Shown here in pieces: positions 4,574 to 23,696 of a DNA stretch of 35,254 nucleotides (position 1 is the stretch's first letter; the number at the start of each line of letters is the position of its first letter). Made by a program: the position numbers and the translations under genes. Below the pieces are notes generated by a model that saw only the letters and a list, made by a program, of their open reading frames with translations, was not told the DNA's origin and searched no databases. The stretch lies in the NCBI GenBank assembly GCA_964632485.1, contig CAZWDO010000030.1:1-35254 (forward strand). Reading direction: 5' to 3'. The stretch is from an uncultured bacterium (GTDB lineage: Bacteria > JAGOEH01).

Positions 4574-7500
4574 GCAAAGTCGGCGATAAAGAACGAATAG
4601 CCCAAAACCGTGTGGTAAAACTGTTTCAGGACGAACTGAAATACCGTTATCTGGGAAACCTCGAAAAAGAAGAAAACAACAGCAATGTGGATGAAGCCTT
4701 GCTAACGGCTTTTCTTACCAAAAAAGGTTATACTAAAAACCAAATCAATAAAGCCCTTTACGAGTTTTACAAAGCAGTAAACATCAACACCCACGACGAC
4801 CTTTACCAAGCCAATAAAAATGTGTATTCACAGCTCAGCTATGGTATTTAAAGTAAAAGAAGAAGCGGGAGAAAACAAAGAAACGGTTTACCTGATTGAC
4901 TGGAATAATCCGCTTGAAAACGATTTTGCCATTGCCGAGGAAGTAACCATAAAAAGCGTTCATAACAAACGCCCTGACATTGTTATTTATGTAAATGGAA
5001 TTGCCTTAGGCGCTTTAGAACTTAAACGCAGTACGGTTTCAGTTTCCGAAGGAATCCGTCAGAGCAACGACAACCAAAAGCATATTTTCATTAAACCATT
5101 TTTCACCACCATTCAATTGGTTATGGCTGGTCAGGATGTGGAAGGTTTGCGTTACGCAGGTATCGACACATCAGAAAAGTATTATCAAAAATGGAAAGAA
5201 GTTAGCGTAGAATTTAATCCAAATGACACTTATCTGCTGGAACTCACAAAATCCATTCGGGAACAGGCATCTAAAGCCGAAAACCTGTTGGATAAAAATA
5301 TCATTGAAATGCTCAACAAAGAGCGTTTAATTGAAATAATTCACGATTTTGAAGTGTACGACCGCGGTCAAAAGAAATTTTGCCGTCCAAACCAGTATTT
5401 CGGAGTTAAGGCTGCTCAGGAAACACTTCGCAACAAAGAGGGCTGTATTATCTGGCACACGCAGGGAAGCGGGAAAAGTTTAACCATGGTTTGGCTTACC
5501 AAATGGATTAAAGAATACAACCCCAATGCCCGTGTTTTAATTGTAACCGACCGTGACGAACTCGACAAACAAATTGAAAAGGTTTACAAAGGCGTAAGCG
5601 AAGATATTTACCGATGCAAACCCCGAAACGGTAAAAGCGGCGGCGCTATTCTCATTGATAAACTCAACGATACCGAACCCTGGCTTTTGTGTTCGCTTAT
5701 TCACAAATTCGGCAACAAAGAGGAAGCCGATTACGATAGTTACCTGACTGAATTAAAAAACAGTTTGCCAAAAGATTTTTCACCCAAAGGTGATTTTTAT
5801 GTGTTTGTAGATGAGTGTCACCGTTCCCAAAGTGGCGACCTGCACAAAGCAATGAAGCAAATTTTGGGCGAAAAAGCCATTTTCATTGGTTTCACCGGTA
5901 CGCCTTTAATGAAAAAGGATAAACAAAAAAGCATTGAGGTTTTCGGTAAATACATTCATACTTATAAATTCGACGAAGCGGTTAAGGACGGTGTTGTTCT
6001 TGATTTACGTTACGAAGCGCGGGATATTGAACAGAAAATTACCTCGCTCGATAAAATTGATACTTGGTTTGAAACTAAAACGAAAGGCCTAACCGACTTT
6101 GCAAAAACAGAACTGAAACAAAAATGGGGAACCCTGAAAAAGGTATTCAGCTCGGTTGGCGTTTACAAAAGATTGTTACCGATATTCTACTCGACATGGA
6201 AACCCGTGAGCGTTTACAAAATGGCAGGGGAAATGCACTTTTGGTTTCCGACAGTATTTACAATGCTTGTCGTTATTACCAATTGTTTCAGGATTCAGGT
6301 TTTACCCGTTGTGCCATTGTAACATCATTTGCCCCCTCATATACTGATATTAAAGGCGAAGGCGAAAATCACACCGAGAAAATCATGCAATATGAGATTT
6401 ACCAAAAAATGCTCTATGGTAAATCACCCGAAGACTTTGAAGATGAAGTAAAAAAACGCTTCATTGACGAACCTGCTCAAATGAAACTGCTGATTGTGGT
6501 AGATAAATTACTGACAGGTTTCGATGCCCCAAGTGCAACCTATTTGTACATCGACAAAAGTATGCGAGACCACGGCTTATTTCAGGCAATTTGTCGTGTA
6601 AACCGTTTAGATGGTGACGATAAAGAATATGGTTATATCATTGACTACAAAGACCTTTTCGGAAGCCTCGAAACTGCATACAATGACTTTACCTCAAAAG
6701 CATTTGAAGATTACGACAAGGAAGATGTGGAAGGTTTGCTATGCGACCGTTTGAACAAAGGCAAAGAGCGTTTGGATGATGCGCTGGAAACCATTCGGGC
6801 TTTATGCGAACCGGTTGTACCTCCCAAAGGCACAAAAGAATATATTCAATATTTCTGTGGAAACCCTCAAATACCAGCAGATTTAAAAGACACTGAACCT
6901 CGCAGGCATGCACTTTACAAAGCAGTAATTTGCGTGATACGAGCCTATGCAAATATTGCAGACGAATTAGAAGAAGCTGGTTATAAACCTAATGAGATTG
7001 AGAAGATAAAAGCGGAAATCAAACATTACGAGAATGTCCGCAAAGAAATACAATTGGCAAGTGGCGACTATGTGGATTTAAAACAATACGAACCAGCCAT
7101 GCGGCATTTAATTGACAGTTACATTGGCGCTGAGGAAAGCCAAAAAATTTCAGCATTTGATGATTTTAGTCTGGTCGAACTGCTTGTTAAAGATGACGAA
7201 GATGCATTGGATAAAATCCCTGAGAGTATCAGGAAGAATAAAGATGCCATGGCAGAAACCATTGAGAATAATATGCGAAAAGTGATTATTGAAGAAAGTC
7301 CAACCAACCCGATTTATTATGAGAAAATGAGTGTCCTGCTCGATGAACTGATAAAAATGCGTAACGAAGAAGCAGAACGCTATGAAGAATATTTAAAGAA
7401 AATTGTTGAACTGGCTGTAAAAATTAAAAAACCTGAAACAAGTAGCGAATATCCAACAAGCATAAACACTCAGGCAAAAAGGGCTTTGTATGATAATTTA

Positions 7501-7695
7501 GAAAAGGACGAACCTTTAACTGTTGTTTTAGATAGTGCAGTAACTTATGGCAAATACGATAATTGGGAGGGTAATTTTGCCAAAGAAAGACATCTTAAAA
7601 ATAAAGTGGTAAAACCTGTTTTAGAAGATTACAACAAAGTAGAAGTTTTAGACCCTATTTTCGAGATTATCAAACAGCAAAACGAGTACAAATAG
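4570..7695 (+). pseudogene. hsdR: Type I R-M restriction subunit HsdR, split by two frameshifts (near 4847 and near 6155)
   Basis: Nuclease motif RPDIVIYVNGIALGALELK, Walker A HTQGSGKS, DECHR, FTGTP, LLTGFDAP and QAICRVNR are spread over three frames (SYGI/KVKEE; KKVFSS/RLQKIV). Confidence 0.9.
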
Positions 7696-7697
7696 AA

Positions 7698-8426
7698 ATG
7701 GAAGAAGTTAAAGTTTTACATATTACTTCAAATCTATCCATTGATGTAGTTCGAAAAGACATCAAGAATATGCATTTGGCTGTTTATCCGCCAACTGGCA
7801 GGGTTCGTATTGCAACACCTTTAAATGTAAACGACGAAGCTGTAAGACTTTTTGCTATTTCAAAAATTGCGTGGATTCGTAAACATCAGAGACATTTTAA
7901 AGCTCAGGACAGACAATCGCCCAGAGAATTTAAACAGCGGGAAAGTCATTATTTTCAAGGCAAACGGTTTTTACTGAGAATAACAGAACATGAAGCCCCC
8001 GCCAAAGTTGAGATAAAAACAAAAACTTATATTGATTTATTTATCAGACCAAACAGTACTATTGAACAAAAGCAAATTGCTATCAATGAATTGTATCGGT
8101 CTGAATTAAAAAAACTAATTCCAGAACTAATTGAGAAATGGGAACAGAAAATCGGTGTGCAGGTTTCTGAATGGCAGGTAAAACAAATGAAAACCAAATG
8201 GGGAACATGCAATATTGAAGAAAAAAGAATATGGATAAATCTGGAATTAGCAAAAAAACCGATTCATTGTTTAGAATACATCATCGTTCACGAAATGATT
8301 CATTTCATTGAGAGGCATCACAACGAGAGATTTATGGCTTTGATGGATAAATACATTCCTCAGTGGAAATTTTTTAAAGAAGAACTAAACAGATTACCAG
8401 TAAGTCACGGAGAATGGGATTATTAG
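7698..8426 (+). CDS. M48/YgjP-like (DUF45) zinc metallopeptidase associated with type I R-M
   Basis: VVRKDIKNMHLAVYPP, MKTKWGTC, EYIIVHEMIH (HExxH), HNERF. Confidence 0.88.
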   Translation: MEEVKVLHITSNLSIDVVRKDIKNMHLAVYPPTGRVRIATPLNVNDEAVRLFAISKIAWIRKHQRHFKAQDRQSPREFKQRESHYFQGKRFLLRITEHEAPAKVEIKTKTYIDLFIRPNSTIEQKQIAINELYRSELKKLIPELIEKWEQKIGVQVSEWQVKQMKTKWGTCNIEEKRIWINLELAKKPIHCLEYIIVHEMIHFIERHHNERFMALMDKYIPQWKFFKEELNRLPVSHGEWDY

Positions 8427-8593
8427 AAACATATAGCCAGCCCACAGTCGTAAGCGCATTTGCAGGCCCACACGAGCCAACGCTACAACCAAAGCTTATC
8501 AAAGAGTGTGTCTATCATAACGCACGGCAGACCGAAACGAAGTAGCAAATTGATAGGAAATGACTGAAAACAATGAACACCAGCGCCCGATAA

Positions 8594-8701
8594 AGTGTAT
8601 ATGCCATAAGGGTTCAGTGGGTATTTAAGCGTTGCAGCCCGCTCAAAATTTCGTGTCGATAAACAAGAAATTACTACGCAATCCCTTACGGCGCATACAC
8701 T
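8594..8701. repeat. Long imperfect hairpin resembling a degenerate attC-like intergenic element
   Basis: Arms AGTGTATATGCCATAAGGG (8594-8612) and CCCTTACGGCGCATACACT (8683-8701), 16/19 complementary. Confidence 0.45.
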
Positions 8702-8817
8702 CGAACGTATAGCATCGATGTGCTCTTTTAGTTGCAATCCAACTCGAAAATCAATCTAATTTTACATTTGCCGTCTTTTTTAAGTAGTTAAATCTACAGT
8801 CCATTTCATAACGAATT

Positions 8818-8854
8818 AAAAGCCGGGTCAGCATCGACGCTGCCCGGCTTTTTT
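8818..8854 (+). terminator. Intrinsic terminator downstream of the R-M operon
   Basis: AAAAGCCGGG(T)CAGC-atcgac-GCTGCCCGGCTTTTTT: GC-rich stem plus T tract. Confidence 0.75.
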
Positions 8855-8946
8855 CATTATTGGTCACACAGTTTTGCATTGTTTGTCACGACTTGATATG
8901 GCGCATTTCACCGGAATATGCATCCAATCGACTTCAATATTTTTCC

Positions 8947-8975
8947 TTGACATTTCCTGGATTCATTGTTATACT
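8947..8975 (+). promoter_or_regulatory. sigma70 promoter of the five-gene operon
   Basis: TTGACA (8947-8952), 17 nt spacer, TATACT (8970-8975) with an extended -10 TG; AAGGAG RBS before the ATG at 8996. Confidence 0.75.
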
Positions 8976-8995
8976 CTCAAAAAAGGAGTCATCAC

Positions 8996-10411
8996 ATGGC
9001 CAATACCCCCCTATCCTCTATACAAGATACCGCCCATGAACCGACCAAACGCAAACGCGGACGCCCCCGAAAGCAGGAGCATCCGGAGATGGAAACGTCT
9101 GAAATCCAACCATCCGCAGCGACTGAAACCCAACCGCTGGAGCCGTTAGCCGAAGCGATCCCCCCCGCTGTTGAATTATCTGCTCCCATGCCGGAACTCA
9201 CGTCGGCATCTGAACCGAATCTCTCCCTTGAAGCTAAGCCCGTCGTGCATGAACCACAAATTCAGGAAAGTGTCGAGTACGAATCCACTAGCAAACTGAC
9301 CGCTATAGCCGAACCACCGGTTCCATCTGAACCTGAACTCGAAATCGAGCAGGAAACGGAATCTGATGCGATATCAAAATCTAAATTGGAACCCGCTTCC
9401 GAACCACCGACTGCCATCATCGAAGCTCCCTCAGACGCTAAACATCCCCTCCCCGATGATTTCCCCCAACTGGAGATCGATCCGGAATTCGAGCAACTGA
9501 TCACTCCGCTGACCGAACAGGAATTCTACAATCTACGGGAATCGATCACAAGCTCAAACCAAGTGCGAGACCCCATAGTCGTCTGGAACAATATCATTGT
9601 CGATGGGCATAACCGCTACAAAATATGTCAGGAAACTAAAATCATTCCGCAGATTATATCTATCGAATTCGAGAACCGGAAGCAAGCCCGCGAATGGATT
9701 ATCCGCAACCAGTTTTCCCGTCGCAATCTCTCCTTGGCCAACAAGACGTATATGATCGGGAAATTGTATAACGAACTCAAGGGCGACCGTACTCAAAATT
9801 TACGGCAACGATCGAACGGTCAAAATGCCCGTTCGGGAAATACCGCCAAGCGCTTATCCAGCTTATTTAAAATGGAAGAGAAATCGATCAGGCGAGCAGA
9901 CGAGTTTGCCCAGGTAGTCGATCGTATTCAGAATGAAGCTATCCGAATGATGATCCTCAATCGGCATGGAAACATCAAGCTCAAGGAAATTTTAAATCTG
10001 CGGAAGCTTTCGGATGAAGACCTGCAACAGGCTGTGGCAGATCTGAATCCCGATGCCCAAAATACCGAAGCCATCATTTCCAGCACCGTGAAAATCAAGC
10101 GAAAACGAAAACCGTCCACGGAACATAATACGGGCACTCAACAGGTGACGGCAAATGCCAACATGGAATATCAACAACGGGAATTAAATCCGAAATTAAC
10201 AAAAATTCTGCCCGTGTTTCTGGAAGCGCTCAAACTGGAATTGGCGCAGCGATATGGGGATTTGGAGACGATGACCTGCCCCAATTGCCACAAGGCTTTG
10301 TACTGGACTGTTTTCGATAACATTCGGCTGACAAGTGACCCACTTCAAATATCAAATTCTGAATTCAAAGTGAAATGCAACCATTGCAAGCATGAATTTA
10401 AAAATTTTTAA
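8996..10411 (+). CDS. ParB/Srx-like domain protein with an N-terminal AT-hook, a Pro/Glu-rich linker and a C-terminal CxxC...CxxC zinc ribbon
   Basis: KRKRGRPRK; IDPEF..LIxPL..QEF..L..SI; DPIVVWNNIIVDGHNRYKIC; WIIRNQFSRRNLS; CPNCH...CNHCK. Start reassigned to the ATG at 8996 on RBS evidence. Confidence 0.75.
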   Translation: MANTPLSSIQDTAHEPTKRKRGRPRKQEHPEMETSEIQPSAATETQPLEPLAEAIPPAVELSAPMPELTSASEPNLSLEAKPVVHEPQIQESVEYESTSKLTAIAEPPVPSEPELEIEQETESDAISKSKLEPASEPPTAIIEAPSDAKHPLPDDFPQLEIDPEFEQLITPLTEQEFYNLRESITSSNQVRDPIVVWNNIIVDGHNRYKICQETKIIPQIISIEFENRKQAREWIIRNQFSRRNLSLANKTYMIGKLYNELKGDRTQNLRQRSNGQNARSGNTAKRLSSLFKMEEKSIRRADEFAQVVDRIQNEAIRMMILNRHGNIKLKEILNLRKLSDEDLQQAVADLNPDAQNTEAIISSTVKIKRKRKPSTEHNTGTQQVTANANMEYQQRELNPKLTKILPVFLEALKLELAQRYGDLETMTCPNCHKALYWTVFDNIRLTSDPLQISNSEFKVKCNHCKHEFKNF

Positions 10412-10472
10412 CGAAGGGATAAATTGGCAAACATCCTGAAATAAAATAATTAATCAAAATTGGAGGGAAACA

Positions 10473-13400
10473 ATGCTAAAAGCCTCATATTTGAAAACAT
10501 TGATCGATGACTCATTGCCGTCTTCTGATATTCCTATTGAAGCATTAAATGAGATGATTGGAAAATATCCAAGTGATGTTAATTTTTTACTTCAACGTTG
10601 TGCATATTTTCTTAAATTAAAACAATATGATAACGCAGGAAATGATTGTAGCCTAATAATCAACAATTTTCCAAATCATTTTTACGCTTATAACAAAGCG
10701 CTTTTATTTGATTCTTATATTAAAATCGTCACAGATTTATTTGACAAAGCATCAGATGAGATTGTGGAGGTTTTAAATACTATTAAAGGATTTGATTTGG
10801 AATTATCGGATTTATATTATCTTCTTGCAATGTCGAAAAATTACTTAGAAGATTTTGAGTCATGTTTAAATTATTGTGATATGGCTTTACAACTGAACCC
10901 CACTGAAATAGAAATTTTAGCCTTAAAAGCAAATGCAATCGCCCATTTAAGAATGCCTGATGAGGCATTCCAGATGTTTGATTGCCTAATTAATCAAAAT
11001 CCCGACGAACCAACGATTTATACCAGAAGAGCTGAAATATATGACTTGCAGGGGGATTATGAAAAAGCTCTTTTGGATTTAAATCATGCTATTGAAATCG
11101 ATCCAAACTCAGATCATTATTTGGAACGGGGGGATTATTATGAAAAACATGAGCAATTGGCTGAAGCTTTACATGATTTTACAAAAGCAATTGAAATTGA
11201 ACCAGTGTATAGAACTTTTTCTCACCGCAGCAGTTTCTATAAAAGGCATAATAATCCTGTCAATAGCATGAAAGATTTTAATCAGGCGATTAAACTTGTT
11301 GATAATGAACAGGATTGCCAACTTGAGGAATTAATTAGTAGAAATGATAAAAAACGAAAAATAATATGCCTAAACAGAGTTATCGAAATGAATCCGAGCG
11401 CTCAAAACTATTTAAAGCGTTCTGTGTATTATTTAAAACAACAGAATTTTAAAAAAGCCTTAAAGGATGTAAATAGATCAATAAAAATCTTGCCTCTGAG
11501 TATAGCTTATGCTGTACGTGGTCTCAACTATCAACAAAATGGGAACACTTTCAAGGCTTTAAATGATTACAATAAAGCCATTGAACTTGATGATACGAAT
11601 GCCAACCACTATATCTTAAGAGCTCAACTATACAGTGAACTCAATGACTATGAAAAAGCCTTAAATGATTACAATAAAGCCACTCAGCTTGATAATACAA
11701 AGTCCTCAATTTTTTTTAATAGAGCCCAATTATTTACAACACTTAATCAATATGGCAAGGCTTTAAATGATTGCAATAAAGCCATTGAACTTGATGATAC
11801 GAATGCCAACCACTATATCTTCAGAGCTCAACTATACATTGAACTCAATGACTATGAAAAAGCTTTAAATGATTACAACAAGGCAATTGAACTTGATAAT
11901 ACGAATGCCAACTATTATTTGCAAAGAGGATTGGTCCATCAATCCCTTTATGATTTTGAGAAAGCAGAAATAGATTTGAAGCAGGCAATCAATTACACCA
12001 ATTCACAAATTGCCTATAAAAGATTAGCTTATGTACAAACGTCAATGAAAAAATATGACGAGGCGATAAGTATGATAAATAAATGGGAACTAATCGACCC
12101 TGACAATACTGAAATTGTTCTATTTAAAGCCATGTACTACAATGAAAAAAAAGATTTTAAAACAGCATTATCTCTTTGTGAAGAAACAATTAAAATGCAT
12201 CCTGATTTATTTTGGACCTACCTTTTTAAACTTGAAATTTATGAAAAGCAGAAACTATATCATGAAGCCTTGACATTTTCAAATGAAATTGTTGAGCGCT
12301 TAAAACATTTATATCAACAAAATAATAGTATAAATAAAGAAGAATGCAATTTCATAGATTCGTCTGTGCTTTTTAATATGTTTCAAGCAACCCGTGCCTA
12401 TCTTCTGCTTCATTTTAAAGAGGAAGCTGATGCATATCAGGAAATAATCGATTGTAAAAATCTTCATGACTATTTGGACAAAAAACAATTAAATCGTTCG
12501 ATTCAAATGAAAGTTATATTTTATAACTTTAACAATCTAATAAAGAGAACGACAAACATATGGATAGAGTCCACTTTCACTTTTTTTCACCGGCTGCTTA
12601 TTTTGTTTTTTAATTTTGATAAAACCAAACACTCCAATGCCATATTTGAAGAATTGATGAGTGTCCTGGACAAGATGCCATATATTGAAGTACCATTAGC
12701 CGATGGACTGTTACCTTTAATGAGAAGGATTTTGGGGCCTCAAACCAATCCTGCCGATTTCACCGCTCATTTTAAGAAAGTGGGTAAAGAAATCTTCAAT
12801 TTAGAAGCGAGAATGGCGATTCTGCGCTATATTATCCGGGAAATCAACAAAGAAAAATTCAGCGGTATCTCTTCCTCTTTCAGCGATAAGGAATTCCAGC
12901 AAATGATGGACCTGTTCATCAATCTCGAAGAAGCATTCGAGAAAAAAAACAAAGAGCTCATCGAAGACCATGAAAAACAAGTAGCCGAGGCCAAGCTCAA
13001 AGCCAAAGATGAAATTATTCAAAGCTTCTCCCATAAAATGAAAAACACCTTCCCCAAGGCGATCGCCGCCATTGAGAACGTGTTCGAGGATTACCGTGTC
13101 CGTGGCGTAGAGATTCCCCAGGAGTTGGAGGCTTCTAAAAAACAAATTCAACGCATTGAAAAAATCGCTCATTCCATCAATTTTTCTTTTAAAGGCAGCA
13201 TCGATGATGTTCGGTTTGACACCTCCCAATATGACAATGCCAAAAACATGAAGCAAATTATCGTCGAGGCCATTGAAACCGGAATTGAAAACATCCTCGA
13301 TAAAACTGGCATCTATGCCGATTTTTCCCGAGGCTATTTTGATTTGAAAACCAAGAAATTAGCCCGAACGGAATTGCATGATGTCCGCCATCGGTCTCTT

Positions 13401-13799
13401 GAATTCTTGCAATCTTTACTAACCCAGTATTTTTTCGATCTGGAGTTTGAACCGGGAGTTTCCGATTCATGGATGATCGGAAACAATCGCCATACCTTGA
13501 CCAAATTCACTGAAATCTTCGATGAATTGATATTCAATGCCATCAAGTATTCATCGACGATCGAACGGTGCAATCGAAAAATTATCCTACGGCTCACGGA
13601 AGAAACCAATAAAATCATCTTTGAACTCAGAAACAACTGTCAAATAAACGAGAATACTCCCCGCACAACCGGCATTGGTCTGGAAATTATCAAGAATACC
13701 CTTTCCTCTCTCCAAATCCCATTTGAGATCAACAAATCACCGGATTTTTTCTCCATCCGTATCGAATTCGATCATTACTGGAAACCCGCACAATTATAA
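10473..13799 (+). CDS. Cytoplasmic TPR-repeat sensor histidine kinase with an atypical HATPase domain
   Basis: Many 34-aa TPRs (YEKALNDYNKAIELD), a coiled coil, an H-box-like IIQSFSHKMKN, N-box FDELIFNAIKY and G2-box TTGIGLEII; no obvious signal peptide or TM helix. Confidence 0.8.
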   Translation: MLKASYLKTLIDDSLPSSDIPIEALNEMIGKYPSDVNFLLQRCAYFLKLKQYDNAGNDCSLIINNFPNHFYAYNKALLFDSYIKIVTDLFDKASDEIVEVLNTIKGFDLELSDLYYLLAMSKNYLEDFESCLNYCDMALQLNPTEIEILALKANAIAHLRMPDEAFQMFDCLINQNPDEPTIYTRRAEIYDLQGDYEKALLDLNHAIEIDPNSDHYLERGDYYEKHEQLAEALHDFTKAIEIEPVYRTFSHRSSFYKRHNNPVNSMKDFNQAIKLVDNEQDCQLEELISRNDKKRKIICLNRVIEMNPSAQNYLKRSVYYLKQQNFKKALKDVNRSIKILPLSIAYAVRGLNYQQNGNTFKALNDYNKAIELDDTNANHYILRAQLYSELNDYEKALNDYNKATQLDNTKSSIFFNRAQLFTTLNQYGKALNDCNKAIELDDTNANHYIFRAQLYIELNDYEKALNDYNKAIELDNTNANYYLQRGLVHQSLYDFEKAEIDLKQAINYTNSQIAYKRLAYVQTSMKKYDEAISMINKWELIDPDNTEIVLFKAMYYNEKKDFKTALSLCEETIKMHPDLFWTYLFKLEIYEKQKLYHEALTFSNEIVERLKHLYQQNNSINKEECNFIDSSVLFNMFQATRAYLLLHFKEEADAYQEIIDCKNLHDYLDKKQLNRSIQMKVIFYNFNNLIKRTTNIWIESTFTFFHRLLILFFNFDKTKHSNAIFEELMSVLDKMPYIEVPLADGLLPLMRRILGPQTNPADFTAHFKKVGKEIFNLEARMAILRYIIREINKEKFSGISSSFSDKEFQQMMDLFINLEEAFEKKNKELIEDHEKQVAEAKLKAKDEIIQSFSHKMKNTFPKAIAAIENVFEDYRVRGVEIPQELEASKKQIQRIEKIAHSINFSFKGSIDDVRFDTSQYDNAKNMKQIIVEAIETGIENILDKTGIYADFSRGYFDLKTKKLARTELHDVRHRSLEFLQSLLTQYFFDLEFEPGVSDSWMIGNNRHTLTKFTEIFDELIFNAIKYSSTIERCNRKIILRLTEETNKIIFELRNNCQINENTPRTTGIGLEIIKNTLSSLQIPFEINKSPDFFSIRIEFDHYWKPAQL

Positions 13800-13811
13800 A
13801 GGAGCGTAGAT

Positions 13812-15068
13812 ATGGGAAAGATTCGCTATATCGAAGATGAGCCGGATGCCTATTTCATGATCAACGTCTTTCAGCATGTCCTGAGCCAGGGTGAAATGAT
13901 CAACCTCAAGGAAAGCGAGAATGACCCGGATACAGTCATGGAAGCCGTACAATCGAATCCCTATATGCAACTGGTTACCGATTTCACTCAGGCGATCCAA
14001 ATTTTTCAAGATGAATTGACCCATGAAGATTTATTGATTGTCGATCGTGATTTATATGGCAATGGAATGAAATATCAGACCACTCGGCTTCCCGATGAGC
14101 TTCATCCGCCATTTGATCAAACCTTCTTTAAACGGGAGGGTGATTTTCTGATTCATTTAGCTCGCAACAGAAAATTCGATTTGGAAAACCGGTTCTGGAT
14201 ATTTACCGGAAATGATGACCCCATCCGCGAACGGGACGATTTGAAATACACTTTGAGCCAACAATTCTTAAGCAACAACATCATTATCAAAGGCAGCGAA
14301 GGTAAAAATAAGCTATCCACAATCATCGACAAAAATTTTCATCTGCAAATCGAGAATAAGCCATACTTCGATATATTGGAAAAAAAGTTGAGTTCAATCA
14401 CTGACGATAATCAGTCAATATCCTCATCCGCCCAGGAATTTTTATTTATTCTGGAACACCAGGATGATGAATCGGAACCAGTTAAATTTGCAGTGTTGAG
14501 CAAATGCCGGATATTTATCGAAAATATCTGCCATCAAATCGCTCGTACCCATAACGCGCCGGACACGGTTTGGAAAAAGAACCAGCCTGATCAATTCGGT
14601 CTGGGGGAATTCATCGGCTGGATGAAAAAGTACAATCCCCAAAATCAGCCCTATATGGCGCACCAGAACGAATTCGAAGCGGCCAAGGAATTGATATCAT
14701 TGACCCGAAGGCGATTTAATCGGAATTATCAACTGCCGGATGATTATCAGTGGTATATGGGGAATATTTTGAAGGAAATCGCATTTCAGCTGAACGCACC
14801 GGATGAACTCTGGCATGACAAAGGGAAATGGCAGTTAAATATCAATCAATTTGAACGCTGGGTTAAGGAGCATACTGAACGAAACTGTTATCAGCTAGAT
14901 TCAAACATTATTATCGAACAGTTCCTATACATGATTCACCGGATTGCCAGTGGAATCGCCGTTCATCAAAATCTGCTCGATTATCCGGGATTCCGCCCCA
15001 CGTCCAATACGGTACATGCCTTGGTATCAGTGCTCAAAGAAATAATTCTTTGGTTTGGCCAATTATGA
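13812..15068 (+). CDS. Atypical response-regulator receiver-domain protein with an uncharacterised helical C-terminal domain
   Basis: IRYIEDE (acidic pocket), DLLIVDRDL (phospho-Asp), REGDFL, FWIFTG, IIKG; starts 12 nt after the kinase stop, with an AAGGAG RBS. Confidence 0.65.
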   Translation: MGKIRYIEDEPDAYFMINVFQHVLSQGEMINLKESENDPDTVMEAVQSNPYMQLVTDFTQAIQIFQDELTHEDLLIVDRDLYGNGMKYQTTRLPDELHPPFDQTFFKREGDFLIHLARNRKFDLENRFWIFTGNDDPIRERDDLKYTLSQQFLSNNIIIKGSEGKNKLSTIIDKNFHLQIENKPYFDILEKKLSSITDDNQSISSSAQEFLFILEHQDDESEPVKFAVLSKCRIFIENICHQIARTHNAPDTVWKKNQPDQFGLGEFIGWMKKYNPQNQPYMAHQNEFEAAKELISLTRRRFNRNYQLPDDYQWYMGNILKEIAFQLNAPDELWHDKGKWQLNINQFERWVKEHTERNCYQLDSNIIIEQFLYMIHRIASGIAVHQNLLDYPGFRPTSNTVHALVSVLKEIILWFGQL

Positions 15069-15095
15069 TAAAAATCACTGAACCCATACAAGGAG

Positions 15096-15614
15096 TTGGT
15101 AATGGTAATGATCGTTGATCATTTGAAACACATGCTGGTTGAATTGATGAATAAAATCCATGCCGAAAAATGGTTTGGCAAAGAACGGGAATGCGTCAAC
15201 CGCTTTGTTTTCTCCAAACTGGTTAAAGCCGTCGGCTGTTGTCCTGAATTTATGCATACCGAACAGATCGCATTCGAAGGACGCATGAAGCAGGTTTCGA
15301 GCTCCAGCAAAAAAGAAGTCTGCAAGGATTTGGTAATCTGGAAATACAAGAACCAAACCTGTTTTGCCACGGAAAATCTGCCGCCGCAGGGAATTATCGG
15401 ATGGAAACACCGGAAGAAGCAACCGTTTCCCTACGATATTGAGTGGCTGAAACACTACACGCAGTTTTATCCATCGTGTTTTGGGATTGCGCTCAACATC
15501 GAAAATGAATCGGAATACCGGGCCACGGGGGGGGTGATTACTCAGGGGAATGTGCAAGATGAACATTGGCTGGATTATTCGCCAGCAATTGCCAATACTG
15601 AAGGAGTTCAATAA
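15096..15614 (+). CDS. Hypothetical protein, PD-(D/E)XK-like fold suspected
   Basis: E..QIAFE...KDLVIW...IIGWK pattern; its stop overlaps the mrr start (TAATG). Confidence 0.45.
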   Translation: MVMVMIVDHLKHMLVELMNKIHAEKWFGKERECVNRFVFSKLVKAVGCCPEFMHTEQIAFEGRMKQVSSSSKKEVCKDLVIWKYKNQTCFATENLPPQGIIGWKHRKKQPFPYDIEWLKHYTQFYPSCFGIALNIENESEYRATGGVITQGNVQDEHWLDYSPAIANTEGVQ

Positions 15615-16525
15615 TGATACCGGATTTCCAAACTATCATGCTGCCGTTATTGCGGACTCTTGAAGACCAAAAGGAACATAAATTTCGGGATTTGATCGAA
15701 CAACTGGCCGATACATTTCAACTATCGGAAGAGGAACGAAAAGAGTTGCTCCCCAGCGGACTTCAAGCGATGTTTGACAATCGAGTCGCATGGGCGCGTA
15801 CGTATCTGAAAAAAGCCGGATTGATCGATACCCCCAAACGAGGCAACGCAGTCATAACTGATCGAGGAATCGATGTACTCAAAGAAAATCCGACCGTTAT
15901 CAACATAAAATACCTCAGCCGATTTACTGAATTTATTGATTTCAAAAATATGCGAAAAAACTCAGTTGAGCATGAAGAACCTGCCGATAAACAACCTTCA
16001 TTGACCCCCCAGGAACAACTGGATTCTGCCTATATAGGGCTCAGACAATCTTTGGCGGATGAATTGCTTCAGCGGATCATCAAGCAATCACCAACATTTT
16101 TTGAACAACTGGTTGTGGAATTATTGGTGAAAATGGGATATGGAGGATCGATCAAAGAAGCAGGCAAAGCCATCGGCAAAACGAATGACGAAGGTATTGA
16201 CGGTACTATCAAGGAAGATCGTTTGGGACTGGATATCATTTATATTCAAGCCAAACGATGGAAACCCGGAAATGTAGTCGGCAGGCCGGAACTCCAGAAA
16301 TTCGTGGGAGCATTGGCCGGGCAAGGCGCGAAGAAAGGAATTTTCATCACAACGTCGAGTTTCACCAAAGATGCTATTGATTATTCCCCAAAAAATGAAA
16401 CCAAAATCGTATTGATTGACGGCGAGCAATTGGCTCAATTGATGATCGACTATGGAATCGGCGTTTCTTCTGTTAAAACCTATGAAATCAAACGAATCGA
16501 CAATGATTATTTCGGCGATGAGTGA
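15614..16525 (+). CDS. mrr: Mrr family (type IV) restriction endonuclease
   Basis: Mrr_N (MIPDFQTIMLPLL...NRVAWARTYLKKAGLI) and Mrr_cat (FFEQLVVELL..MGY, DEGIDG, IYIQAKRW, GIFITTS, LIDGEQL). Confidence 0.95.
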   Translation: MIPDFQTIMLPLLRTLEDQKEHKFRDLIEQLADTFQLSEEERKELLPSGLQAMFDNRVAWARTYLKKAGLIDTPKRGNAVITDRGIDVLKENPTVINIKYLSRFTEFIDFKNMRKNSVEHEEPADKQPSLTPQEQLDSAYIGLRQSLADELLQRIIKQSPTFFEQLVVELLVKMGYGGSIKEAGKAIGKTNDEGIDGTIKEDRLGLDIIYIQAKRWKPGNVVGRPELQKFVGALAGQGAKKGIFITTSSFTKDAIDYSPKNETKIVLIDGEQLAQLMIDYGIGVSSVKTYEIKRIDNDYFGDE

Positions 16526-16605
16526 TGGCATTTGAAACATATCGATAAAATAAAATCATTCGCCCCTTTAGCTTAATGGCACACACTCATTTTTTAGCGA
16601 ACAAA

Positions 16606-16724
16606 TGTAAAAAAGTGGGGAATCGGTTTGAATCTGAGACTGGGGAATACTTTTAACCCTGGGGTGGGGAATGCTTCTGACCCTGACGGGCTAAAAAGTG
16701 GGGAATTCTGCTGGCCCCCTGACA
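16606..16724. mobile_element. Orphan IS21-family-like transposon end
   Basis: Four co-oriented TGGGGAAT boxes (16616, 16641, 16665, 16699) ending in ...CTGGCCCCCTGACA; no transposase adjacent. Confidence 0.6.
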
Positions 16725-16736
16725 CTTAGAAAAATT

Positions 16737-18053
16737 TCAATTACAATACTTTCTAATAAAATCGTATGCATCTTCCATACCTAATTCACCAGCTTTAGAC
16801 CAATCCAGGCAAGCTCTTTTGATGTCTTTAAGGTAATATTTTGATAATCCTCGATTATAATAAGCAAATGGGTCGTTTGGATATAACCTAATTACTTCAT
16901 TATAATCGGCGATTGCCCCCCAATAATCTTCCAAACGGAGTTTCACATTCCCCCGATTTCCATACGCAGCAACAAAATTTACATTTAACCGAATAGCCTC
17001 ATTATAATCGGCAATTGCACTCCGATAGTCCTTTAAATCAAATTTAATATTCCCTCGATTATGATAAGCATCAGCGTGATCCGGGTTCAACCGAATGGCC
17101 TCATTATAATCGGCAATGGCACCCCGATAGTCCTTTAAATTAGTTTTATCGATACCTCGACTATAATATGCATCAGCATTATTTGGATTTAAGCGGATTG
17201 CCATATCGTAATCAGCGACCGCATCCCGATAACATTGCAAATTCGATTTGACAATCCCTCGATTCAGATAAGCCCAATCATGATTTGGATTCAATCGAAT
17301 AATCTTGCTATAATCATCTATTGCACCTTGATACTCCTGTAAAGCTAATTTACAGTTGCCGCGATTAAAATAGGCCTCAGTTAAATTAGGATTTAACCGA
17401 ATCGCTTCATCGTAATCCGCTATTGCTTCCCGGTAGAATTGCAATTCATATTTTCTATTCCCTCGATTATAATAAGCATAAGCGTTATTAGGGTTTAAAC
17501 CAATCGCCGTATTGTAATCTGCTGATGCGCCCTGGGAATCTTGTATTTTTGCTTTTGCATTTCCACGATTAACATAAGCTTTATTAAAATTAGGATTTAG
17601 CCGGATTGCTTTATCGTAATCCACTATTGCTTCACGGTAGAATTGCAATTCATATTTAGCAAGCCCTCGACTCATGAAAGTTAAATCACAGATTGGGTTC
17701 AACCGAAGAGCCTCATTATAATCGGAGATCGCACCCCGATAGTCCCGCAGGTTGAGTTTGGCATTTCCCCGATTATAATATCCGTAAGAAAAATTTGGAA
17801 ATAATTTAATCAACGAATCTGATATGCCGATTGACTCCTGATTTTTTTCATCAATTAGTTTAAACCAGGCCTGGCAATATAAACCATATTCAGATTTAGG
17901 CGATAGATCGATGATTTGTTGGCTTATTTGTTTAAGTGAATCCATATCTTCAATTTTTAAAAGCTTTGAAAACAAAGCCTTCGCGGCATCATAGTTTGAA
18001 TCCGCCAATGCATTGGAAAGCAGTACCAATAATACGATTAACACGTTCCGCAT
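16737..18053 (-). CDS. Exported TPR-repeat protein
   Basis: Signal-peptide-like MRNVLIVLLVLLSNALA (ATG at 18053 after AAAGGA); about ten AYYNRG...AIADYxxAIRLNP repeats; C-terminal ACLDWSKAGELG cap. Confidence 0.85.
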   Translation of the reverse strand: MRNVLIVLLVLLSNALADSNYDAAKALFSKLLKIEDMDSLKQISQQIIDLSPKSEYGLYCQAWFKLIDEKNQESIGISDSLIKLFPNFSYGYYNRGNAKLNLRDYRGAISDYNEALRLNPICDLTFMSRGLAKYELQFYREAIVDYDKAIRLNPNFNKAYVNRGNAKAKIQDSQGASADYNTAIGLNPNNAYAYYNRGNRKYELQFYREAIADYDEAIRLNPNLTEAYFNRGNCKLALQEYQGAIDDYSKIIRLNPNHDWAYLNRGIVKSNLQCYRDAVADYDMAIRLNPNNADAYYSRGIDKTNLKDYRGAIADYNEAIRLNPDHADAYHNRGNIKFDLKDYRSAIADYNEAIRLNVNFVAAYGNRGNVKLRLEDYWGAIADYNEVIRLYPNDPFAYYNRGLSKYYLKDIKRACLDWSKAGELGMEDAYDFIRKYCN

Positions 18054-18534: not shown

Positions 18535-21080
18535 TCACTTTCCCACCATCACAAACGCTCCCCAGTAAAATGGGATATCGCGTCCGTAACGTTTCAATAC
18601 GATCTGTCTTATTTCCTGCTGGGCATTTCGAAACGAGGAATATTTATCTTTCGTTTTCAACCAATTCTGATAAAACAACGTCATCAGTTCCTGGGTCTCT
18701 TGATCCGGAACCGACCACAAACTCATCATTACAGCCTCGGCGCCAGCAAATTGAAATGCCCGACGCAATCCGAATACGCCCTCGCCGGCTTGTATCTCTC
18801 CCAATCCGGTTTCACATGCGCTCAGTACAACCAATTCAGTTCCCCGCAAATCCAAGTTAGCAGCTTCATACGCTGTGAAGACTCCATCATCCATATCACT
18901 GGATGATATATCGTTATTCGCTCCAGAAAAATATAAACCACTCCGAAGCAACGGATTTTCAATATATACCGATTGCAATTGATCATGATTTAATCCTGCC
19001 ATAAATTTGGAATAGTCAATTTTTTGCTCCGGCATAAAAAAGCCATGGGTCGCCACATGCAATACTTTAGCAGACTTTACCGCCTTCATATTTTCCTCGA
19101 TTGCTTGAAGACCGGTATAAACTTGCACCGGAATGCGATTTGAACTCAGCAAATAGTGAATCGATTCAATTTCTCTTTGAGTGCCGGGTAAATCGCCGAG
19201 GGGGCTTCGCTTTAAATCATGTGAATAAATGGACCGGGTATCTGCGGCTAATTCGATGTCTCCACCATGGCGACTCTGACGAATGGCGTTTGTATCCGCC
19301 GAAAATCGCGGATCGCCGAACAATATCCAATAACGATTCATTTCGGCTGAAGGATCGGTTTTTAGTATATCTTTCGTGCTGGATACATAGCGTAGTTCAT
19401 GAACATCGTTGAGAAAGCGACCCTGTGGATTTACCAGGATGCCCAGCGCGATTTGATTCAGTAATCCGTCGGGAGAAACAAACACCCGCTTGCTATTCGA
19501 CAGATAAGATTCCAGGGGTTTCCAGATAAAATCGTAGGTGTGGCTGGCGGATTTGAAATCCTTATCGGTGCGTTGGTTGATTTGCAGTTTATATTCGGTA
19601 TCGATTAACCATTTGAGATCGGATTCCGTTCCCAGCGTTACCAGTAAAGGATGATCCTGAATTTGAGGCGTAATGATCAATGCGCAATAAAGCATGGAAT
19701 CCGGAGATTTTGGGAAAGCAATAAATTCAATTGCCGCCTCATCGGAATGCAAGTGATCGCGGATATTTTTCCATTGAACGGTTTGCAACTCTTTTTCAGC
19801 TCTGTAAGCGCTGGATATTCTGGATAGTTCCTTTTCCAGCTCATCGGATTCCTGTTCGAGGATTTGGAGCTGTTGCTTGTATAATTCGACATTGTCAATT
19901 GGATTTGAGTAGAGATACGCCAATTGTTCCCGTTTGGATTTGAGGCGATTTAATGTCTCAATAGCCGTCGAATCGCCGCTTTCCAGGATACTGCGAACCA
20001 TGGCGCTTTGGCTGGTGAGAATGATCCCTTTATGCCACAAAAGCAGGTTGTATAGTTTAGTAATAATGGATGGGTTGGTTTTGGAGTATTCATATGCAAA
20101 CAGATAGTAATTGTAAAAATAACCATTGACTGTTTTCAGAAAATCTTGTTTGCTTTTTTCTGATGAATACATAAAAAGACGTTCAAATTGATTAGATAAA
20201 TTTATCAAAACACGGTTAAATAGCGGTTCCGCTTCTACATATCGGCCTTGAATTCGGTATAACTCGGCTAGATTATTTAAACTTAATGCCACATCGGGAT
20301 GTTCGGAACCAAGTATTCTTTCTCTTATTTCCAATGATCGTTTATACATGGGTTCCGCTTCTTCGTAGCGGCCTTGATCGCAATATAGTAAAGCCAAATT
20401 ATTCAAACTTGTTGCCACATCCGGATGATTAGAACCAAGTATTCTTTCTCTTATTTCCAATGCTTGTTTATACATGGGTTCCGCTTCCGCGTAGCGGCCT
20501 TGGATTCGGTATGATTCGGCCAGATTATTTAAACATGTTGCCACATCTGGGTGGTCCGGACCCAATACTCTTTCAATAATTTCCAATGCTTGTTTATACA
20601 TGGGTTCCGCTTCTTCGTAGCGGCCTTGATCGCAATATAGTAAAGCNNNNNNNNNNNNNNNNNNNNNNNNNNNNNNNNNNNNNNNNNNNNNNNNNNNNNN
20701 NNNNNNNNNNNNNNNNNNNNNNNNNNNNNNNNNNNNNNNNNNNNNNGTTTATACATGGGTTCCGCTTCTTCGTAGCGGCCTTGATCGCAATATAGTAAAG
20801 CCAAATTATTCAAACTCAATGCCATAAACGAAGGATACTGATTTATTGATTTCTCAGAAATTTGTAACGCCCATTTATAGATTGATTCTGCCTCTATATA
20901 TTTATTTTGATCAGTATACATATTTGCCACACTATTTAGACTTTCAATTACATCAAAAATTTTCCCTTGAACTAATAGTTCTTCAACTTTCTCTCTGTAT
21001 AAATCCCGACATTCATCTTGAGCTATTACATTAATACTGAAGCTCAAAACAATCAAGATTGTAATTAATATTGATTTCAT
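18535..21080 (-). CDS. Exported TPR (kinesin-light-chain-type 42-aa repeats) plus CHAT caspase-like protease; one gene spanning the assembly gap
   Basis: Signal peptide MKSILITILIVLSFSINVIA; HPDVAxSLNNLAxLY..QGRYxEAEP repeats; CHAT dyad LHVATHGF and VLSACETG; FYWGAF terminus. The sequences on either side of the gap duplicate each other. Confidence 0.85.
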
Positions 21081-21184: not shown

Positions 21185-21643
21185 TTATTCTATTCTCAAG
21201 ACACACTTGACGGCGACACATTGAATTTGTGCATCGCCGAACGGAATCGTGTCGTTCCATTGAATCGAATCCCGGATTGTTGAAACGGCATTCCGGTATC
21301 GAGTGTAAATCTGGCTGGCGGGAGGCATCCAATCGCCCCGGTCGATCACGTTAGAATAATGAACATAGGGCATCAATCGGTCGATATTCCCGATATGGTC
21401 ATTATCGTAATGCGTTGTCAATACATAATCGAGAGTATCGATATTCAGCCGGTTCAAAAGCTGAAGGATGGTGTCCCGAGCGGCATTCGTATATCCGGCA
21501 TTGATCAGCATGGCGTAGGTATCGGCCTGAATCAGGATGGCATCGCCCTGGTCTACATTGATGGCGTGGATCGTGAGATTCTGGGCGTAAAGCGAAAATG
21601 AACCGACACCAAACATCATCAGAATTAATATGCCCCGGAACAT
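21185..21643 (-). pseudogene. ComEC/Rec2-like MBL-fold metallohydrolase, C-terminally truncated
   Basis: Signal peptide, INVDQGDAILI, THYDNDHIG (HxDxDH); ends after 152 aa without the second half of the fold. Confidence 0.7.
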
Positions 21644-21772: not shown

Positions 21773-23696
21773 GTCGAGTAGGCAAAGGCATTTCAGCCTA
21801 AGCCTCTCACAGAACCGTACGTGATAGTCTCCCATCATACGGCTCTTCCAGACAAACTCAGCCAGTAAAGCCATAACTCCAATGCACAAATGTATCCGGA
21901 TAATATTTTACCATGCGTTTCATCCATCTATACGATTTTGAATAGGTCTTCAACTTGTACTTGTTTCTTGCCCATTTCGCTATCCTGATGTTTAACAACC
22001 GAAATACTCTTTGCAGTTCTGATATCCGATGCTTTCCATAATAATTTATCCAGCCTCGTATCTTCGCTGACAGGGCTTTTGCTATGTCCTGAAGACTATG
22101 CTTTACCCATCTCTGGATTGTTAATTCCCTGAGTTCTTTAAGTATCCGTTCTTCACTCTTCTTGCTTATTGCCGGTCGATAACCCCAGAACTTCTCTCCA
22201 TCTGATTTTAAACATATCCTCGGTTTAAAGGTGTATCCAAGAAAATCAAATGCCACTGGGATTCTCTTGTCCTCCTTGTAATACCTCGCTGTCCGATAGC
22301 AATATACTATCTTTGTCTTTTCCGGATGGACTTCTAATGAGTAATTTTTCAACCGCTGCTTCACTTTTTCCAATATGAAGTTCGATTGTTTTATACTCCG
22401 TGTGTGAATGACTATGTCATCCGCATACCGTTCAAATACTATCAGTGGCTGGGTCGTTGTTATCCATTGGTCAAAGGCTTCATCCAAATAAAGATTGGCT
22501 AACAACGGACTTATTACGCCTCCTTGTGGAGTGCCTTTTTCTCTCTTCTCCTTTGTGCCATTCCTTCTCTGTATCGGCGCTTTTAACCATCTCTCGCAAT
22601 ATAGCAATATGTGGCGCTTACTGGTGTACTTCCGCAATATCTTCATCATCTGTTCATGGTTTATGTTGTCAAAGAATCCTTTGATATCTAAATCTACTAC
22701 ATACCACCTCTCCCAACTGTACTTCGCACATTGTTCCAACGCCTGATGGGCGCTTTTTCCCGGGCGATAACCAAATGAACTGCCATGAAAGTAAGGTTCT
22801 ACTCTCTGCTCTAATTCTTCTCTGATTACTTCCTGCGCGACTCTGTCTAAGATTGTTGGTATGCCCAATATCCTTTCTTTGCCGTTTCCTTTGGGGATGG
22901 TCACCTCTTTCACCGCTGGCGGATAATAACTGCCGCCGGCTAATCGATTCCACAAAGGATACAAGTATTTGCGTGGATTCGTTGCTATTTCCTCCATCCC
23001 TATTTCATCTACTCCCCTCCCTTTTCCGCCTTGCTTTATCTTCTTCCACGCTTTCCATACCTGCGCTTTACTTACTGTCTGCGTTTTCGTATCTAACTCC
23101 TCAATCATCCTCTGTTTAAGTTGTTGCTCTTGTTAAACACTGTCCGGTGAAGCCCTTCGCTCCATTCTCATTACAAGAACTTCTTCACTACTACGGCTTC
23201 ATCCGCCACTCGCTAATGCCTCTCTACTTTTGACCTCACAGTTTCTCTGCTTGTGTCTTTTCGTTTTACATCATCAGCGAGCTTCCCCAGTTCCATATAC
23301 AAGCCTTTATGCAATTCCTGCTGTCTTTATGCCGAGCGTCAACACAGTCAGTTTCTCTTCCAGGTCACTTCTGTGCTTTTCCCAAAATAGACTGAGTTAT
23401 TTTGGTTTCTAACGCCGTCTATGTCAATTTCGACACCTCTGCGACAGTTCACTTGCGTTCAGCTCTTGCATAATTACCTGAAATGCTTCTTTCAGCATTC
23501 CTTTTCCCTGTCCGCTCAATACCTCTGTCTTTGGACAAAAGCACCGCAGGGCGGTTTGGCAGATTCTCCTGGTAACTCCTGCCGGTGGGTCAGTTCTGCA
23601 AACCCTTCTGTTTACAGTCCACTATCTTGTATTATAGTTCACACATCTGATTTATTAGTAGTGTGCCTCTACTATCATTTGTGTTTCTGGGCGCAC
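21773..23696 (-). mobile_element. Complete group II intron (IIB-like, class D-type RT, no En domain), 1924 bp
   Basis: 5' end GTGCG at 23696; domain V GAGCCGTATGATGGGAGACTATCACGTACGGTTC; domain VI ending CCTACTCGAC at 21773; EBS1 stem-loop at 23382-23405. Confidence 0.93.
21858..23108 (-). CDS. ltrA: Group II intron reverse transcriptase/maturase
   Basis: GVD, LWNRLAGGSYYPPAV, IPKGNGKERILGIPTILDRVAQ, GYRPGKSA, DLDIKGFFD, GTPQGGVISPLLAN, RYADD, FDFLGYTF, maturase IRGWINYY; no HNH domain. Confidence 0.95.
   Translation of the reverse strand: MIEELDTKTQTVSKAQVWKAWKKIKQGGKGRGVDEIGMEEIATNPRKYLYPLWNRLAGGSYYPPAVKEVTIPKGNGKERILGIPTILDRVAQEVIREELEQRVEPYFHGSSFGYRPGKSAHQALEQCAKYSWERWYVVDLDIKGFFDNINHEQMMKILRKYTSKRHILLYCERWLKAPIQRRNGTKEKREKGTPQGGVISPLLANLYLDEAFDQWITTTQPLIVFERYADDIVIHTRSIKQSNFILEKVKQRLKNYSLEVHPEKTKIVYCYRTARYYKEDKRIPVAFDFLGYTFKPRICLKSDGEKFWGYRPAISKKSEERILKELRELTIQRWVKHSLQDIAKALSAKIRGWINYYGKHRISELQRVFRLLNIRIAKWARNKYKLKTYSKSYRWMKRMVKYYPDTFVHWSYGFTG

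Follow-up and report, generated by a model that had tools for sequence, protein, structure and literature searches.

We analyzed a 35,254-nucleotide stretch of DNA from an uncultured bacterium of the lineage JAGOEH01 (GenBank assembly GCA_964632485.1, contig CAZWDO010000030.1, referred to hereafter as the window), concentrating on five intact co-oriented open reading frames (ORFs; O1 to O5, plus strand, from 8966 or 8996 to 16525) that an earlier note, made from the letters alone, had proposed as a candidate defense system. O2 and O3 are best described as a two-component system whose output is HEPN-like, and a system of all five genes is not supported as a unit. We consider it probable that the locus is a composite, in which a conserved two-gene core, made up of a soluble histidine kinase with a tetratricopeptide repeat (TPR) sensor (O2) and a response regulator (O3), gates a HEPN-like effector domain carried by O3 itself, while O1, O4 and O5 are local neighbors. 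Two-component systems are the main bacterial signaling device, whereas Cas13, Csm6, many toxins and abortive-infection systems have HEPN domains as their RNase effectors.

The organization of related loci identifies the core. A word-based search returned one relative of O3, and an exhaustive profile search returned 112 cluster representatives, mostly 320–390 amino acids (aa) in length. Two sets of loci were compiled around such relatives: 20 from genome and metagenome collections (10-sequence alignment as query), and 20 from the 31 positive genomes among 232 of another phylum (longer contigs were chosen, so that this is not a random draw). A kinase homologue lies directly 5′ of the O3 relative on the same strand in 16/20 loci of the first set, or 16/17 once the three of the other four that begin at a contig edge are put aside (L019 and L020 scored identically and may be one sequence); the second set gives 15/20, and both sets together 31/40. 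At E < 1e-3, phmmer found no relative of O1, O4 or O5 at any of the 40 loci. Taken together, kinase adjacency at 31 loci and the absence of the other three families at all 40 indicate that the conserved unit is the kinase–receiver pair. The earlier note had read kinase and receiver as a His–Asp pair, which stands, and had treated the ParB-like, nuclease-like and Mrr genes as parts of the same unit, which does not; its proposed check of neighbor conservation thus comes out in favor of the kinase beside the receiver and against the ParB-like and nuclease genes. We regard O1, O4 and O5 as neighbors peculiar to this genome, which may be co-transcribed with the pair.

O3 (13812–15068, plus strand) is composed of a receiver (residues 1–177) followed by a C-terminal domain (residues 190–418). 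Residues 1–177 have a CheY-like alpha/beta fold, and the phospho-acceptor pocket (E8, D9, D78, T132 or S132, K160) is retained in 60/60 aligned members of the family, position 132 being Thr in 48 and Ser in 12. The predicted acceptor, D78, is invariant and sits within the motif DLLIVD. A family-specific insert at approximately residues 82–108 carries a near-invariant R-E-G-D motif (53–59 of 60). O3 matches no Pfam family at E ≤ 0.01, none of 30 scanned relatives reaches a Pfam cut-off, and searches for a helix-turn-helix (HTH), for a PADLOC family and for an NCBIfam family in O3 were all negative; the earlier description of a partner with receiver motifs and no HTH is in keeping with these results.

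The partner kinase O2 (10473–13799, plus strand, 1108 aa) has as its recognized input a TPR array spanning approximately residues 110–610 (Pfam TPR families), and no membrane-like segment is found along its length (the highest 19-residue Kyte–Doolittle mean is 1.11), so that the soluble, TPR-input enzyme described previously is confirmed. The C-terminal GHKL domain (residues 1012–1099) is recognized as HATPase_c_5 (E 1.5e-5; score 25.2 bits, cut-off 22), and contains an N box (E1018/N1022) and a G box (G1067-x-G1069). Pfam HisKA was not matched by O2, three relatives giving weak HisKA matches; the predicted phospho-accepting histidine is H854. Comparison of 30 family kinases reveals that S853-H854, N858, E1018, N1022, G1067 and G1069 are present in 30/30, K857 in 29/30, and K1025 and Y1026 in 29–30 of 30. 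Relationship within the family extends well beyond these signatures (O2 and the kinase of locus L003 share 29% identity over 600 aa, E 1e-70), and the related kinases mostly carry a TPR input, one having IF2_N and HSDR_N_2 domains in its place.

Insight into the output of O3 came from structure comparison. An AlphaFold2 model (predicted local distance difference test (pLDDT) 86.8) was aligned to approximately 48,000 solved chains; Foldseek returned no PDB match at E ≤ 0.001, the top rows being PorX and LvrC, with Csm6 chains as weak whole-chain matches (E 0.075–0.078, probability 0.18–0.25). For the Atlas model of O3, clusters of DUF4145, PF05168 HEPN and DUF3644 are among the nearest structures, and an Atlas feature search with the HEPN-like part gave no usable named match. 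Two features of this domain are strongly conserved in the family: an S380-x4-H385 motif (S in 55/60, N in 3 and C in 2; H in 58/60), and R233 of the first helix, invariant in 60/60.

The same domain is predicted to dimerize. Homodimer models of O3 scored 0.63 in three runs (best control 0.00); the runs share 84% or more of their contacts, and the partner pLDDT is 77 or higher. This score passes the mark of the tool, as do 20 of 30 proteins with a solved homomeric structure and one of 23 with a solved monomeric one, and the existence of solved HEPN dimers means that the O3 result may partly reflect likeness to known structures. The modeled interface is formed by residues 360–417, juxtaposing the two motif-bearing helices, S380 included. 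Judged from these models, the output of O3 is most likely a HEPN-like four-helix domain that would pair through its two S-x4-H helices, with no DNA-binding output. The earlier note had an effector activated by His–Asp phosphotransfer; the likely effector is the HEPN-like domain of O3 itself, not Mrr or O4.

The pair recurs in a particular regulatory setting in its relatives. In 15/20 loci of the second set, a CARF-AAA-HTH gene of the RtcR_PspF2 family (PADLOC, E down to 1e-134) lies no more than four genes 5′ of the pair, Pfam RtcR and Sigma54_activat also being found for these regulators, and such a regulator is likewise upstream in L011, L016 and L020. Sites resembling sigma54 promoters (GG-N10-GC, at least 8/11 matches, within 600 nucleotides (nt) 5′ of the kinase) occur in 8 of 23 regions, where 0.13 per region would be expected. 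At L066 (12435–16998) and L075 (659–5072), a gene encoding NERD and superfamily 1 (SF1) helicase domains, which corresponds to the type III CRISPR-associated PADLOC family C3a187, is interposed between the RtcR-like regulator and the kinase–receiver pair, and at L066 a further kinase of the O2 family is present. At three related loci, a CARF-only protein (239–284 aa) followed by an unannotated protein of 245–418 aa replaces the CARF-AAA-HTH activator. Some related loci have further neighbors of interest, namely AIPR (MzaE/AbiU-like) with Vsr, McrBC, an MNT–HEPN pair, transposases, NERD–UvrD helicases and a PD-Lambda-2_B-like protein; in L014, an MNT gene overlaps the start of the kinase. The family as a whole is patchily distributed (31/232 genomes in one phylum, 0/400 in a broad sample, 0/2 in the phylum of the window).

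Several observations weigh against a phosphorylation-gated HEPN effector with a part in defense. At six loci (five of the second set, plus L004) an O3 relative is present without this kinase family adjoining. The receiver of O3 is very divergent, to the point of being unmatched by Pfam Response_reg, and no sequence method ties residues 190–418 to HEPN: among the 30 members scanned against Pfam there was no hit above cut-off, with one faint HEPN_AbiU2 match (E 0.0079), the O3-family profile found nothing relevant among PDB sequences, and hhalign of the family against one Pfam-HEPN protein returned a probability of 0.6%. The arginine that defines the R-x4-6-H motif of HEPN RNases is replaced by serine in 55/60; the domain may therefore be non-catalytic, and O3 is placed in no named HEPN family because of this departure from the defining motif. 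Regarding context, the genome of the window has no RtcR-family match, and no sigma54-like site precedes O1 or O2, such that the wiring here differs from that of the relatives that have the CARF regulator. Lastly, many other related loci are set among dnaK, dapB, and genes of sugar and amino-acid metabolism and of biosynthesis, and such housekeeping surroundings mean that context does not in itself imply a defense role.

These points bear on an alternative which we judge unlikely, if deserving of serious attention: that O2 and O3 form a two-component system of the usual kind, serving regulation or a stress response, whose non-catalytic HEPN-like domain binds RNA or a partner protein, and which has no role in phage defense. 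The arginine missing from 55 of 60 sequences and the housekeeping neighborhoods would both suit such a system, and control by an RtcR-like sigma54 activator in the relatives fits a stress regulon; moreover, inactive regulatory HEPN families are known (PMC3710099), and action by binding has been proposed for MtlR-type HEPN domains. Conversely, the conservation of H385 and R233 goes beyond the needs of a mere scaffold, and in the same HEPN census there are families with the histidine but not the arginine, in which a different basic residue is conserved; these are considered possibly active, although their activity is left open there. The patchy distribution of the family, and the defense neighbors of some loci (AIPR with Vsr, McrBC, NERD–UvrD, PD-Lambda-2_B), also sit poorly with a purely regulatory system.

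The loci without an adjoining kinase of this family raise a second alternative, in which the receiver-like domain of O3 goes unphosphorylated and acts as a sensor of a small molecule or nucleotide, the kinase-like neighbor having some other role. Kinase-less receivers have been discussed as nucleotide switches (PMC8195603 and PMC11229360), and the insert with its R-E-G-D motif could be accommodated by such a function; nevertheless, all five pocket residues are kept in every aligned member, and a kinase with an intact H box is the immediate neighbor at most loci. We consider this sensor function very improbable, and return to a kinase–receiver pair with a HEPN-like output.

For this pair, we propose a mechanism in which the TPR array of O2 would bind a protein or peptide ligand, altering autophosphorylation of O2 at H854. 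The phosphoryl group would then pass from H854 to D78 of O3, and the phosphorylated receiver could change how the HEPN-like dimer is arranged or how stable it is, such that RNA cleavage or RNA binding is switched on or off. The outcome of this switching may be growth arrest, abortive infection or a stress response. A more ambitious version, which we offer tentatively as one possibility, joins all of these elements: a TPR kinase that senses foreign or stress proteins would arm a dimeric HEPN-like RNase (with a site formed from H385 and R233, as opposed to R-x4-H), as part of a two-key circuit in the relatives and with a DNA arm added in the window. Under this joint proposal, the RtcR-like CARF/sigma54 activator of the relatives would be the transcription key (responding to an RNA-damage or nucleotide signal) and the protein signal the activity key; in the window, the pair would have been recombined with the ParB-like gene and the O4–Mrr genes, placing RNA- and DNA-targeting arms on one promoter.

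The layout of the window bears directly on whether the five genes act together. All five ORFs are open, and each has relatives elsewhere. A sigma70-like promoter at 8947–8975 (plus strand; TTGACA-17-TATACT with a TG extension, 11/12 matches) precedes them, the top-scoring of 48 promoter-like sites in 8400–17000 (shuffled sequence gives 23.6 ± 5.0). O1 and O2 are separated by 61 nt, O2 and O3 by 12 nt, and O3 and O4 by 27–33 nt, with O4 and O5 overlapping at TAATG; a scan of 8400–17000 found no terminator-like site in the plus-strand intergenic gaps of O1–O5. ORF and promoter scans hence agree with the earlier note on the five intact co-oriented genes, the near-consensus promoter, the short gaps and the overlap. 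Upstream of the promoter (~8822–8856) there is a hairpin with a one-base bulge and then a T run, which was read by eye and is absent from the scan list; Rfam and tRNA scans gave no match inside 8400–16800. Short contigs from a second sample span the O1/O2 (10334–10724), O2/O3 (13137–13945) and O4/O5 (15347–15622) junctions with few differences, from which it follows that the same arrangement exists in at least one more strain; this strain is near-identical to that of the window, and is not independent evolutionary evidence. One low-depth contig of the second sample joins 8919 to 16444, skipping 7524 bases, i.e. almost exactly the five genes; it has 25 letters on its shorter side and came from a likeness setting of 85, at which such joins often stem from repeats or other organisms, so that an artefact or a repeat may explain it, and it was not used.

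Such compactness is an argument for one five-gene defense system, in which TPR sensing and His–Asp transfer would license Mrr and/or O4, with the ParB-like protein as a DNA-scanning partner. The strong single promoter, the tight spacing uninterrupted by a terminator-like site, and the unchanged order in the second strain all speak for it, as does the position of the genes beside a type I restriction-modification (R-M) remnant and mobile elements. There are also hints of a ParB–HEPN association: Table 1 of PMC3710099 includes ParB–HEPN fusions and operons, and one Atlas structure row matches the HEPN-like part of O3 to a cluster of ParB_N proteins, with a template modeling (TM) score of 0.44. 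The absence of O1, O4 and O5 relatives from every pair-bearing locus stands against this. Base composition also changes along the cluster (GC 47.8% in O1, 34.4% in O2 and 42–45% in O3–O5, relative to 43.8% for the genome), an unevenness that fits assembly from parts. Mrr, furthermore, acts alone in known systems. Weighing these observations together with those on O1 and O4 given below, we find a single five-gene system improbable, and retain the composite of a conserved pair and local neighbors.

O1 (8996–10411, plus strand) is read from an ATG behind AGGAG, preferred over a TTG at 8966. Its product has three parts: a Glu/Pro-rich N-terminus (17% E and 16% P over residues 1–160) with an AT-hook-like RGRPRK, a central domain containing DGHNRY, and a C-terminal pair of CxxC motifs (at 428 and 461). 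O1 has no Pfam match and no PADLOC family, and in NCBIfam gives a weak match to SerK (E 0.067). The tentative assignment as a divergent ParB_N-like protein derives from its 34 relatives (closest P0004, 64% identity over residues 170–471; three are named ParB-like by JGI): ParB_N is detected in 3/35 members of the family (best E 3.6e-6; O1 itself is without a match), and nine of the 35 are fused to DNA methylase domains (MT-A70, N6_N4_Mtase, Dam). Across the 35 sequences D203, G204, R207, W234, R243 and N244 are invariant, and H205 and N206 are present in at least 90%. A PDB sequence search with O1 found nothing useful, and the O1-family profile matched only an HTH-like stretch. Relatives were sought in the phylum of the window (3 genomes), where none was found outside the genome of the window itself, and neither a genome-contig scan (query P0004) nor a metagenome scan (alignment A2) gave a confirmed locus for the closest relatives. 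For P0004, P0038 and P0039 (contigs of 6–24 kb), whole-database searches found no matching close O3 relative, which is an indirect point against O1 belonging with the pair in one system. O1 brings the promoter to the cluster; it could be a regulator that binds DNA, or what is left of a mobile element.

O4 (15102–15614, plus strand) starts at an ATG 7 nt behind AAGGAG, which is preferred over a TTG at 15096 and agrees with P0158, the form in the database (170 aa). On the opposite strand an ORF of 178 aa (15075–15611) overlaps it; we set this candidate aside in favor of O4 because O4 has homologues (10, at 46–62% identity). These homologues comprise a rare unannotated family, found in 1/400 other genomes, and Pfam, PADLOC and NCBIfam all lack a match to O4. 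Atlas structure rows for O4 include HSDR_N, HSDR_N_2 and Uma2 (TM 0.50–0.57, all below the naming bar of the tool), a PDB sequence search with the family gave nothing useful, and the fold is probably PD-(D/E)XK-like. Within the 11 members D76 and K102 are invariant and the Glu of E-W-K is present in 9; the copy in the window has Gly at this position, and the loss of the family E-x-K glutamate is a further point against the nuclease role that a five-gene system would assign to it. The sole relative in those 400 genomes (locus L078, 7911–8779, contig G398:C8) lies 33 nt 3′ of a hicA toxin gene and occupies the usual position of the hicB antitoxin; it is a single case, and it is hicA, not Mrr, that this only other O4 relative with context adjoins.

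O5 (15614–16525, plus strand) is an ordinary Mrr, a modification-dependent (type IV) restriction enzyme with the full architecture of that family (Mrr_N, E 2.9e-34; Mrr_cat, E 2.6e-35; PADLOC mREase_IV, E 3.6e-91 over residues 2–301). It does not differ from Mrr enzymes in general, its coupling to O4 being a local feature; from the TAATG overlap, O4 and Mrr look translationally coupled, and we read O4–Mrr as a separate DNA-targeting cassette. A spacer of 16526–16736 divides Mrr from a convergent TPR gene and contains four words with GGGGAAT; similar sequence occurs on contig C66 (85% over 129 nt) and on C11, and the 9-mer is not over-represented genome-wide (35 seen, 34 expected).

The wider surroundings fit a variable island in which R-M genes and mobile elements abound. 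The type I R-M locus described previously as broken is so: hsdR is split into two overlapping ORFs, 4820–6322 (HSDR_N, SWI2_SNF2, ResIII) and 6124–7695 (T1R_D3-like, T1RH-like_C), and hsdM and hsdS were not identified. Also in the window are a YhcG-like nuclease, a transposase fragment, TPR-CHAT genes and a group II intron. The non-coding segment 8457–8908, just 5′ of the promoter, has a second copy on contig C43 (172–635, 90.5% over 464 nt), and second-sample depth is raised at 8465–8485; Rfam and tRNA scans found nothing within it, and it resembles a dispersed repeat that borders the cluster on the left. On the minus strand, a TPR-CHAT protein (18535–20601) is preceded by an overlapping 183-aa TPR ORF (20529–21080), which together (18535–21080) look like one frameshifted gene. 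The group II intron (minus strand, 21773–23604; Rfam Intron_gpII at 21773–21847 and group-II-D1D4-2 at 23476–23604) encodes a reverse transcriptase/maturase at 21858–23108, and is adjoined by a short ORF of metallo-beta-lactamase fold (21185–21643). Further along the minus strand are two large hybrid signaling proteins (26102–29254 and 30023–32611; REC-PAS-HisKA_2-HATPase_c and REC-GAF-PAS), ordinary two-component proteins whose receivers, unlike that of O3, are recognized by Pfam.

The O2–O3 pair has features in common with several known systems. Response regulators with non-DNA-binding outputs include CheB, RpfG and PleD, and O3 resembles such proteins (e.g. PorX) in that its receiver would gate an attached effector, with the cognate kinase adjoining. 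Csm6/Csx1 offer a plan that O3 may share, with an N-terminal Rossmann-like sensor followed by a C-terminal dimeric HEPN domain, and CARF is present in the operon region of O3 relatives in the form of the RtcR-like regulator; however, O3 has a phospho-Asp receiver and a dedicated kinase in place of a CARF domain binding cyclic oligoadenylate, its motif is S-x4-H and not R-x4-6-H, and there is no CRISPR locus here. HEPN-T and MNT–HEPN proteins (AF0298, 2hsb; TT1696, 1ufb; SO_3166, 5yep; 8xdj) are small stand-alone toxins or substrate-binding domains under the control of a nucleotidyltransferase, whereas O3 joins the domain to a receiver and has a kinase as its partner, and the window has no MNT gene (L014, among the related loci, has one). 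Avs proteins (antiviral STAND NTPases) share a TPR array as the likely protein-sensing input, but no STAND or P-loop NTPase domain is found in O1–O5 (Pfam), O2 has no PADLOC match, and the signal would be transferred by His–Asp phosphorylation and not by oligomerization.

Operons headed by RtcR (RtcBA, CoCoNuT) offer a parallel to the relatives of O3, which have an RtcR_PspF2-type head gene and sigma54-like sites before the kinase; the genes downstream are a kinase–receiver pair and not RtcBA or McrBC-like genes, and the window differs further in using a sigma70-like promoter with no RtcR-family gene. According to PMC11090510, RtcR-like CARF genes head HEPN-bearing CoCoNuT operons and are proposed to sense cyclic-phosphate RNA ends. 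By analogy, this parallel favors, without proving, an RNA-directed role for the O3 family.

As the earlier note had forecast, a search of O1–O5 with PADLOC-DB 2.0 matched Mrr alone (mREase_IV), with no family for O1–O4 at E ≤ 0.1, and two related kinase–receiver pairs gave no match; its remark that the arrangement is no recognized named system therefore still holds. The pairing of a receiver with a HEPN-like domain is likewise absent from Pfam, NCBIfam and PADLOC. The available part of the HEPN census (PMC3710099) has no receiver with a HEPN-like output, its one “receiver” being unrelated, and its supplementary tables may list more; full-text literature searches found no receiver–HEPN protein, and here the supplementary tables of PMC11090510 may list such architectures. 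As far as these searches reach, a receiver controlling a HEPN-like domain, with a TPR kinase of its own, is undescribed.

Annotations should not carry the five genes forward as a single system, since they are better read as a conserved pair to which two accessory genes and an ordinary Mrr are added. In the relatives, the recurrence of an RtcR-like CARF regulator ties the O3 family to RNA-damage signaling. If the C-terminal domain of O3 is an active RNase, phosphorylation would join cyclic oligoadenylates, AMPylation and guide RNA among the switches that control HEPN domains, and a defined ligand-sensing kinase would be gained for study; should the joint proposal set out above prove true, O2–O3 would be the first His–Asp phosphorelay to gate a HEPN RNase directly.

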